Below are positions 24,001-27,000 of a stretch of 40,249 bases of DNA, one piece after another. The stretch spans positions 1 to 40,249 of the forward strand of contig JBNRMN010000071.1 of the NCBI GenBank assembly GCA_050309605.1, in the 5' to 3' direction. Position numbers: made by a program. The DNA is from Anaerohalosphaeraceae bacterium (lineage in GTDB: Bacteria; Planctomycetota; Phycisphaerae; Sedimentisphaerales; Anaerohalosphaeraceae). Numbering within the stretch: position 1 is the stretch's first letter; every line of letters begins with the position of its first letter.

Positions 24001-27000
24001 CGATTTCCTCGCCGATAAAGCGGCTGATGTCGCCGGGTTTGCGGATATCCACCTGCGAAGCGGGCAGAAAGACCGGCACGCCGATATCCACCAGCAAGCC
24101 GCCTTTGATCCGACGGCTGACGATGCCCTTGATCACATCGCCTTCATTGTGATGGGTGATAACGTGTTCCCACCCGCGAATGCGGTCGGCTTTGCGCTTG
24201 CTCAGCAGAATGCCGCCTTCGGCGTCCACTTCCTCCAGCAGCACTTCGATCTCTTTGCCGGCGACAATGTCGTCGGGCGAATCGAATTCGGAGGCCTCCA
24301 CGATCCCTTCGCTCTTGAGGCCCAGCTCGACGATGACGTCGTTGCCGAACTGGGTGACAATCTTGCCTTTGACGATGGTGCCGGGGACAAGCTTTTCGAC
24401 TTTGGTTTCCAATACGCTGTCCAGAAGATGCTTGTGCTCGTCGGTGAAAAGGGCTTGAATTTCCTGCTCGACCTGCTCTTCGGACAACCCCAGTTTTGAA
24501 ATGATGTTGCGATCTACCATTGTTACTATTCTCCTGTGGAGTCTGTTTTGTAACCTGCCGACGCCCCACATTTACGCCGACCGGCCAAGACCACTTATAT
24601 AAAATGGTTTGTAAAAAAAAAACGCATTGACCCACGCAGTCAATCGCGCTTACTGCGAGTATTCCACTTCAAATCCAACCCTGAAAACCACAACGCCAAT
24701 CGAAATGCCCCAAAAACCGACGTGGCTTTTGAATTCGCAATTCGGGTTTACGTTGTTGGCGTTCCACGTTAACCTTCAAAAGAGCGCAGGTTTTCGACGA
24801 AGGCGTCGATCACCTCATCCGGCGTCGAGGCTCCGGCCGTTACGCCGGCGGTCTGTTTACCGGAAAGAATACTTTTATCAAGTTCCTGCCAATTTTGCAA
24901 GTGAAAGGTTTGCGGATTATGTTTTTTGCACAATTCGGCCAATTTTCTTGTATTGGCGCTGTGCAGTCCGCCTAAAACGAACATCACGTCCACCTGTCGG
25001 CATAACTTCACAGCCGCCTCCTGGCGTTCCATCGTCTCGCGACACAGGGTATTGATGACCTTGATTTCCGAAAACCCGCGCCGAGCTACGGCCGCCAGCA
25101 TTTGAGCAAAATAATCCGGGCTTTGCGTGGTCTGGCAAATAATACCTAACTTCTTTCCCAGATTGAGTTTATACAAATCGTCCTCGGTGCCTGCCACGTG
25201 TACATCCGGCGCCGAACCCACGACCGCCCTTACTTCAGGATGGTTTTTGTCTCCAATAATTACCACATGATACCCTTCCTCATGCAGCAGACGGGCGATT
25301 TTTTGCACCCGTTTGACCAAAACACAGGTCGCATCCACGACATCCAGCCCTTTGTTCTGAATCTCCTGAAGCTCGGCGGAGGTCGCTCCGTGCGAGCGGA
25401 TCAGTACCGTCCCCTCGGCAATCTGGCCGATCTGATTGACCGTATGCAGCCCCGAATCGGCCAGTTGCCGCACCACGTCCTCGTTGTGGATGATGGGGCC
25501 GAGACTGTACACGATATTGTTTTTCTCTAACGTCTTCTTTGCCAGGTTAATCGCATTCCGCACCCCCGGACAAAATCCGCATTTTTCCGCTACCAATACG
25601 TTCATCTATGACCACCGGATTTAAATTCAAAAAAAGGTTTTTGATTTTATACCATATTTTACGAAAAGGGTGAGCAAATTCCCTTGATATTTGAATAAGT
25701 GCCGGCTATCGCCATCAAATCCAAATGGAAAAGCGCTTGACGCCGCCGCACCGGTTCAGGGCGCACAAAACAACCCCGGCCGAACGGATTCGACCGGGGT
25801 CGGCACAATGTGCTCTTCCAAACGACTTATTTCACAAATTCAATATCCAGATAGTGGGTCGAACAGGAAATACACGGGTCATAGGCCCGCACGAGCATTT
25901 CCATTTTCTGGCGCAGAGCGTCCTGGCCTTCGTCCATAAACTGCGGCACAAGCTTTTCGAAATCCAATTGGATATTGGCGTGGTTCTGATTGGTCGGAAT
26001 GCAGCAGTTGCCCCAGACACATTCGCCGTTTTTGTCAAACTCATACGAATGGAACAGGATGCCGCGCGGCGCTTCGATGCCGGCGTGGCCGCGTCCGGCG
26101 CGAAGGGCGACTTTGACTTTTTCAGGTTTCAGGCCGCGGGTCAGCAGCTGGTCGATCACCTCCAGACTGCCTTCGACGACATGGGCACACTCGGCCAACT
26201 GGGCAATGCTGTTGAAATAGGGATTGCAGCAGCCTTTTTTCAGCCCGAACATGTCGGCGACCTTTTTCCCCAGCGGACTGAGCAGTTCGGCGTTGTTGTT
26301 AAACCGGGCCAGCGCCCCGGCCGCATAGGCATCGCGATGCCACTTGGTCCACTTGGCCGTCGATTGCGGATGAACGTACTCATTGGCCACGCTTTCCCAT
26401 TTGGCGGCCGGAACGGGCGGCTTGCCGTTCAAATCGGTGCTGGTAATATCGCCGTGATAGAATGTGTATTCCTGAAGCGTGCCTTTGTACTGCGGCTGAT
26501 TCTGCTTGAGGCTGACGTACTCGGTATCACGGGTAAAGTCCGGCAGCGCCTCGGCCACGCTCAGGACGACATTACATATCGTCACCAGATCGGGCACGAT
26601 GGCTTCCAGCTCTTTCTTCAGGCTGCGCAGCTCGTCTTCGGTCGGTACGCGCGTCATCCCGCCGGGCGTCAGCGTCACCGGGTGCGTAATGCGTCCGCAC
26701 AGCAGCGCCGACATCTGATTGGCCACGCGGTGGGCCTTGATGATGGTTTTGACCGCATCGGTCGCCTTGGGAATCAGCGGCACGACGGATTTTTCGCCGA
26801 ACAGATCCGGCGCCACCAGATAGCCGACATGCAGCACGTGGCTTTGCAATTGCTCGGAATAGTGCATCAGATGACGCACCAAATCCGTCTGTTCGGTCAC
26901 CTCCAGCTTCAAGGCATCTTCCACGGCGCGTGTGGCCACCAGTGAATGTGAAATCGAACAGATGCCGCAGATGCGGCTGACGATGGTCTGAATATCGTCA

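Follow-up and report, generated by a model that had tools for sequence, protein, structure and literature searches.

Ribosomal protein S1 binds RNA with little sequence preference, and how it recognises its own mRNA is therefore an open question. In the account given in PMC3616713, the gammaproteobacterial leader is the only S1 leader to have been verified, with a cyanobacterial candidate mentioned beside it; to this one operator and one candidate the leader described here would add a third family. The cyanobacterial element, cyano-30S or cyano-S1 (RF03151), has been published as a candidate leader in which two hairpins are accompanied by a 5-bp pseudoknot that covaries and lies close to the rpsA start codon (PMC1950547). 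Ribosomal-protein leaders (r-leaders) bind a product of the genes under their control (PMC7247131), and S1 is described as binding A/U-rich sites and pseudoknots and, in E. coli, as repressing its own mRNA through competition between free and 30S-bound S1, an autoregulation that is abolished by a canonical Shine-Dalgarno (SD) sequence (PMC10931766). H-type pseudoknots are reported to be unfolded by S1 (PMC7038950; PMC3858243), with the rpsO knot melted only marginally by S1 in isolation in comparison with S1 on the 30S subunit (PMC3858243), and in tisB mRNA a pseudoknot serves as a standby site for S1 and the 30S subunit (PMC7708055).

The leader occupies the ispH-rpsA spacer on the minus strand of contig JBNRMN010000071.1, from an Anaerohalosphaeraceae bacterium of the order Sedimentisphaerales (Planctomycetota); the window is the whole stretch of 40,249 nt that was analysed. 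A first-pass annotation had placed two conserved hairpins and a pseudoknot adjacent to the ribosome-binding site at 24521..24640. In 5' to 3' order of the transcript, the features are as follows.

24769..25605, minus strand: ispH, the gene upstream of rpsA, with its stop codon at 24771-24769
24622..24649, minus strand: hairpin P1, 9-12 bp, with two-sided change in 9/9 pairs
24609..24622, minus strand: A/U-rich single-stranded linker, with a U run here and a UUAAC motif in many relatives
24590..24608, minus strand: hairpin P2, short and variable with lineage-specific sequence, placed by single-sequence folding and inspection
24551..24587, minus strand: hairpin P3, predicted stem 1 of the pseudoknot, with a conserved GCG/CGY apex and an 11-nt loop
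24564..24570, minus strand: predicted 5' strand of the pseudoknot, the 3' part of the P3 loop (core 24570-24566)
24542..24550, minus strand: A-rich linker crossing stem 1 (A at 585 of 1044 bases across loci)
24535..24541, minus strand: predicted 3' strand of the pseudoknot, complementary to 24570-24564 (core 24539-24535)
24531..24535, minus strand: SD-like AGGAG, whose first base is the last base of the knot (one-base overlap)
22757..24520, minus strand: rpsA, ribosomal protein S1 (587 aa, six S1 domains), with its AUG at 24520

The two annotated hairpins, P1 and P3, both covary, but a third and variable one, P2 (24608-24590), had been overlooked, and the annotated interval covers the knot but omits the 5' arm of P1 (24649-24622). 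In a 65-row MAFFT alignment, two-sided change was found in 11 of the 12 pairs of P3 as well as in all nine of P1, and RNAalifold recovers both stems, with two-sided change in 15 of their 17 pairs. The apex of P1 is conserved as a U-G closing pair with a GYGUD-type loop (24637-24633). The linker that follows has a median A+U content of 76%, with U at five or more of eight positions in 59 of 86 loci and UUAAC in 34 of 86 where 4.7 would be expected. P2 in family f4 often has a loop with a GYGU motif resembling that of P1 (e.g. L054, L089, L105, L037), and the GYGU of the P1 and f4 P2 loops is possibly a repeated protein-binding loop. An inserted hairpin lies within the A-rich linker in 7 of 116 loci, those with long linkers; elsewhere insertions lie in the gap between knot and SD or at the P3 apex, and the hairpin insertions noted (L075, L082, L092, L094, L059, L284, L272, L281; L058, L090; L107) spare both pairing segments.

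The comparative set was drawn from rpsA loci in 70 genomes of the family, a GTDB scan and a sample of the class. From 150 loci, three lacking a 5' end, 15 duplicates and 11 outgroups were removed, leaving 121 loci of the order Sedimentisphaerales, to which they were assigned by the nearest named records; L133 was excluded for its masked bases and L135 for lying at a contig end, and alignment A1 excludes seven long-insertion loci. The pseudoknot could be placed in 116 of the 121 leaders of the order and in all 63 of the family, so that the presence first reported at 16 of 16 family loci holds and extends to the order. Placement relied on the sequence profile alone at 92 loci and was made by hand at 24. 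Hand placement may favour pairing, and two checks free of it therefore matter: a MAFFT alignment and a set of 33 held-out loci (40 loci less seven that duplicated training loci), which were found by a model that knew the sequence of both segments and so test covariation rather than prevalence, and were aligned by a model lacking the knot pairs.

Among the 116 loci, all seven pairs are intact in 84, six in 23, five in 7 and four in 2. Pairs 1-5 are all paired in 108 of the 116 and form a firm core, the only part that is well supported; pairs 6-7 are frequently broken without compensation. On a tree of the S1 protein, 17 branches' worth of joint change in loop and partner were counted, where 2.65 would be expected on average. 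None of 5000 branch-length placements reached this count; 57 of 5040 matchings of the columns did equally well. At pair 3, eight of nine loop changes are accompanied by a change in the partner (U-A to C-G and back). With the hand-placed loci removed, five co-changes remained against 0.56 expected (2 of 5000 placements and 312 of 5040 matchings did as well). With 105 distinct rows aligned by MAFFT, the pseudoknot had 93.2% of its cells paired, compared with 31-66% in slid registers, and five of the seven knot pairs showed two-sided change (17 two-sided cells against 3.3 in shuffles); the held-out loci were 95.7% paired, with compensatory change in 5/7 pairs and 8 cells against 1.1. The computed pairing energy was also better for loops with their own partner (-8.55 kcal/mol) than with the partners of others (-5.83 kcal/mol), a difference that 0 of 10000 permutations over 24 partner types matched.

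Taken alone, one sequence gives weak evidence for the knot, whereas the comparative evidence is strong. In a blind test in which the hairpin of minimum free energy was taken first and its best partner second, p<=0.05 was reached in 35 of 92 loci, with the wrong hairpin often picked, and 29 of the 121 loci had no qualifying hairpin. The tree also carries 20 single and three double pair-breaking changes, mainly in pairs 6-7. At pair 6 (24565/24540) five independent changes of the partner base from U to G have produced a G-G; this G could invade the P3 apex or form a tolerated non-canonical pair, and loop position 7 may close P3 instead of the knot. The knot is absent from four of the 121 loci (L057, L085, L093, L095), L221 carries the divergent f2 form, broken pairs occur in L062, L088, L091 and L101, and the loop sequence has been replaced wholesale in L064, L210, L212 and L285. 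The sequence of loop and apex is otherwise conserved more strongly than pairing needs. P1, P3 and the H-type pseudoknot are thus conserved by covariation and linked to rpsA, and the comparative sequence evidence predicts an H-type pseudoknot between the P3 loop and the segment reaching the SD.

ispH is dispensable for the element: it lies upstream of rpsA in 113 of the 121 loci, and the knot is kept in six loci without it and therefore belongs to rpsA. Four of these six have a promoter-like site 5' of the leader. Further along the locus, rpsA is followed on its own strand by a gene of the sigma70 family in 34 of 79 relatives; in this window (18578-22613) such a gene lies about 3.4 kb from rpsA on the opposite strand, with an apt-like gene, aroB and a membrane-protein gene between, and its displacement is likely a local rearrangement. 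Convergent with rpsA, 21909-22613 on the plus strand encodes a hydrophobic protein of 234 aa with no NCBIfam match, and upstream of ispH, at 25827-30475, lies a cluster of NiFe hydrogenase/sulfhydrogenase type, preceded by a gene for a Rex-like regulator.

The element is essentially single-copy per genome. The knot model found one site in the genome studied here at E<=10, and the full model matched 104 of 151 genomes of the order, with second matches weak and confined to four genomes; 39 of 40 retrieved matches directly precede rpsA. An all-species pattern scan of GTDB gave at least 119 matches, and among the matches listed 99 adjoin the N-terminus of S1, one more precedes that start but is itself at the end of a contig, and 19 lie elsewhere. 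By family, the full model matched f1 in 42/43, f4 in 37/43, f5 in 19/26, f3 in 1/7 and f2 in 0/25 genomes. The f3 leaders have knots that are divergent yet paired. The f2 leaders (L239-L260) lack P1, come in 19 of 22 cases with a sigma70-like promoter pattern of their own and carry a P3-like hairpin with a shorter possible knot of 4-6 bp, farther from the AUG, for which the evidence is suggestive only (722 of 10000 permutations; 60.9% paired; covariation 8/500 shuffles, other measures 21-77/500). Beyond the order, 150 genomes of the phylum gave eight weak matches, none beside rpsA, and 40 rpsA leaders of other orders carried no loop-partner signal (9831 of 10000 permutations equally good). Other orders of the class (L150-L164, L176, L181) have a different conserved hairpin with a GG-RHGGU-CC apex, in 13 of the 40 rpsA leaders, about 70-136 nt before the AUG with further hairpins after it and promoter-like sites before; this leader is a candidate second S1 leader.

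The relation of the knot to the ribosome-binding site was assessed with SD duplexes scored against the genome's own 16S tail (contig C80), which is canonical. The 3' end of the knot lies 10-22 nt before the AUG in 114 of 116 loci and 47-57 nt before it in the other two, leaving the SD core and the AUG outside. The partner segment had been described as abutting the SD, and a one-base overlap with the predicted SD duplex was indeed found in 52 of 63 family loci, but in just 18 of 53 loci of other families, where the gap between knot and SD is variable and exceeds 30 nt in two loci. The median SD duplex is -7.4 kcal/mol in the family and -5.5 kcal/mol in other families, compared with -4.0 kcal/mol for 1195 long ORFs in the genome. 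In 114 of 116 loci the partner could pair back with the SD, weakly (median -3.45 kcal/mol), and an SD-sequestering hairpin was rejected as a conserved switch state, because cognate covariation was absent: the partner fitted its own SD side no better than those of other loci, and 7804 of 10000 permutations did equally well. Also rejected was an upstream ORF from an AUG in the P3 loop, in frame with rpsA here, since all three frames occur among 109 loci (52, 34 and 23). A search for rRNA mimicry found no 7-mer shared with the partial 16S of about 500 nt on contig C80.

From the gene context and the known behaviour of S1 we infer autogenous control, in which the leader probably lets S1 limit its own production. 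S1 is the presumed ligand because r-leaders bind the product of the genes that they control and because S1 favours A/U-rich strands and pseudoknots. The spacer would act as a cis-acting 5' leader of rpsA mRNA, read by S1, with the knot, the A-rich linker and the A/U tract together offering a site at which 30S-bound S1 can dock, and the knot keeping the C-rich partner away from the SD. Such a knot would be compatible with initiation because it reaches no further than the edge of the SD, whose core remains free. With S1 in excess, free S1 would occupy the docking site or melt the knot, and translation of rpsA would drop. We hold with moderate confidence this specific form of autoregulation, in which a pseudoknot and A/U platform bound by S1 would allow docking in a state competent for translation, and free S1 would compete for them or melt the knot. 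Several points count against S1 feedback: the SD of the family is fairly strong, given the effect of a canonical SD in E. coli; the OFF fold lacks covariation and isolated S1 melts the rpsO knot weakly; and four of 121 loci have lost the element, several have broken pairs and two have the wide spacing between knot and AUG.

Among other explanations, P1 with its U run could be a separate signal (a terminator of ispH, an attenuator, or a processing or 5'-stability hairpin of an ispH-rpsA transcript), with only P3 and the knot acting on translation. The U run after P1 in 59 of 86 loci would suit such a role, as would f2, which has its own promoter-like site and keeps only the P3-like hairpin. Yet the run is missing from the other 27, the P1 loop is conserved in sequence, P1 is retained in loci without ispH and, in L045, L209 and L211, was seen by inspection to sit 3' of a promoter-like site belonging to rpsA itself; an admittedly insensitive scan also found promoter-like sites between P1 and the AUG unenriched (5 of 83 against 2.0 expected). 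We consider a separate P1 signal possible, if rather unlikely; it can coexist with S1 feedback and with the other alternatives.

The knot and hairpins might instead raise S1 output without any feedback, as a constitutive translation enhancer or mRNA-stabilising module that provides a standby site or blocks nucleases. A single copy ahead of a highly expressed gene fits this, as do an SD core left free by the knot, an alternative fold without covariation and the tisB precedent, in which a knot is required for translation (PMC7708055). However, conservation of loop and apex in excess of what pairing needs suggests specific recognition, and an enhancer of general use should also stand before other highly expressed genes, none of which was found to carry one in this genome, so that we regard an enhancer as unlikely. 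Less probable still is a knot that represents the OFF state, stabilised by a repressor (S1, or S1 with uS2) at the edge of the ribosome footprint and blocking or trapping the 30S subunit. Its end 10-22 nt from the AUG and the one-base overlap with the SD in most family loci would allow this, and S15 acts likewise on rpsO (PMC3858243), but the reported effect of S1 on knots of this type is destabilising, not stabilising (PMC7038950). Moreover, the SD core and AUG lie beyond the knot, and the gap to the SD is variable in other families, exceeding 30 nt in two loci.

A small-molecule riboswitch of preQ1-I or SAM-II build, classes with an H-type pseudoknot at the SD, an A-rich linker and a comparable size that this element resembles on all three counts, is very improbable, as the element lies before rpsA in 39 of 40 retrieved model matches and in 100 of the 119 matches listed from the GTDB scan, shows no association with metabolic genes, has had its loop replaced wholesale in some lineages (L064, L210, L212, L285) and has no match to an Rfam riboswitch.

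The element is a covarying RNA structure with a consistent position 5' of an r-protein gene and nowhere else, and by its sequence it is best described as an uncatalogued RNA family and a candidate addition to the r-protein leaders that parallels cyano-S1 without belonging to it. The lack of an Rfam match reported earlier was confirmed at gathering score across the window; at E<=10 the region gave only two weak, unrelated matches, and 20 related loci gave six, again weak and all unrelated. No description of the element was found in the open-access literature, and in the available portions of PMC7247131 and PMC2864571 no S1 leader is named for Planctomycetota, so that going by the open-access literature this would be the first r-protein leader reported for the phylum. 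About 150 aligned natural variants, among them complete compensatory swaps, partly decayed forms and four losses, amount to a ready mutational series, suited to asking whether the pseudoknot is an S1 sensor.

Of the S1 leaders, that of Gammaproteobacteria, set against ours by its description only, likewise has three hairpins, A/U-rich single strands between them and conserved G-rich loops; it is described as limited to Gammaproteobacteria, that description mentions no pseudoknot (PMC3616713), and it lacks the canonical SD that the Sedimentisphaerales leader has. The E. coli rpsO (S15) operator is also a knot at the ribosome-binding site of an r-protein mRNA, on which S1 acts, but there the pairing of the knot extends into the coding sequence and S15 stabilises it (PMC3858243), whereas here it stops 10-22 nt before the rpsA AUG. 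In tisB, a pseudoknot and a single-stranded region are both needed for binding of S1 and the 30S subunit, but they act about 100 nt from a sequestered ribosome-binding site (PMC7708055), while our knot adjoins the SD.

The closest likeness is to cyano-S1. The element had been called new, which holds for the RNA family, with no Rfam match and no cross-matches, but not for the idea, already published for cyano-S1 (PMC1950547; RF03151). Both are candidate cis-regulatory leaders, cyano-S1 being found only before rpsA in that description (PMC1950547), and in both a hairpin loop forms a covarying knot by pairing, over roughly 5 bp, with a stretch that ends a few bases short of the start codon. The consensus knot helix and P1 stem look alike by eye only, and variants in L285, L209 and L211 have a near-identical knot sequence. 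In topology the two differ: in cyano-S1 the loop of the first hairpin pairs past the second, as published, whereas here the last hairpin's loop pairs, the P1 loop is unpaired in the knot, an SD follows and the phylum is different. RF03151 matched 2 of 5 cyanobacterial rpsA loci examined and none of the known rpsA leader positions in this genome and 61 genomes of the order, and our leader models matched none of 18 cyanobacterial rpsA loci (best E 0.21); membership in cyano-S1 was ruled out by these searches in both directions together with the topology. A short knot between a G-rich loop and a C-rich partner before the start codon may nonetheless be a recurring, perhaps ancient sensor of free S1, in which case the Sedimentisphaerales leader and cyano-S1 would be two forms of one switch by which S1, unlike at its E. 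coli operator, regulates itself through binding and melting its own pseudoknot, a speculation that we judge unlikely as it stands.
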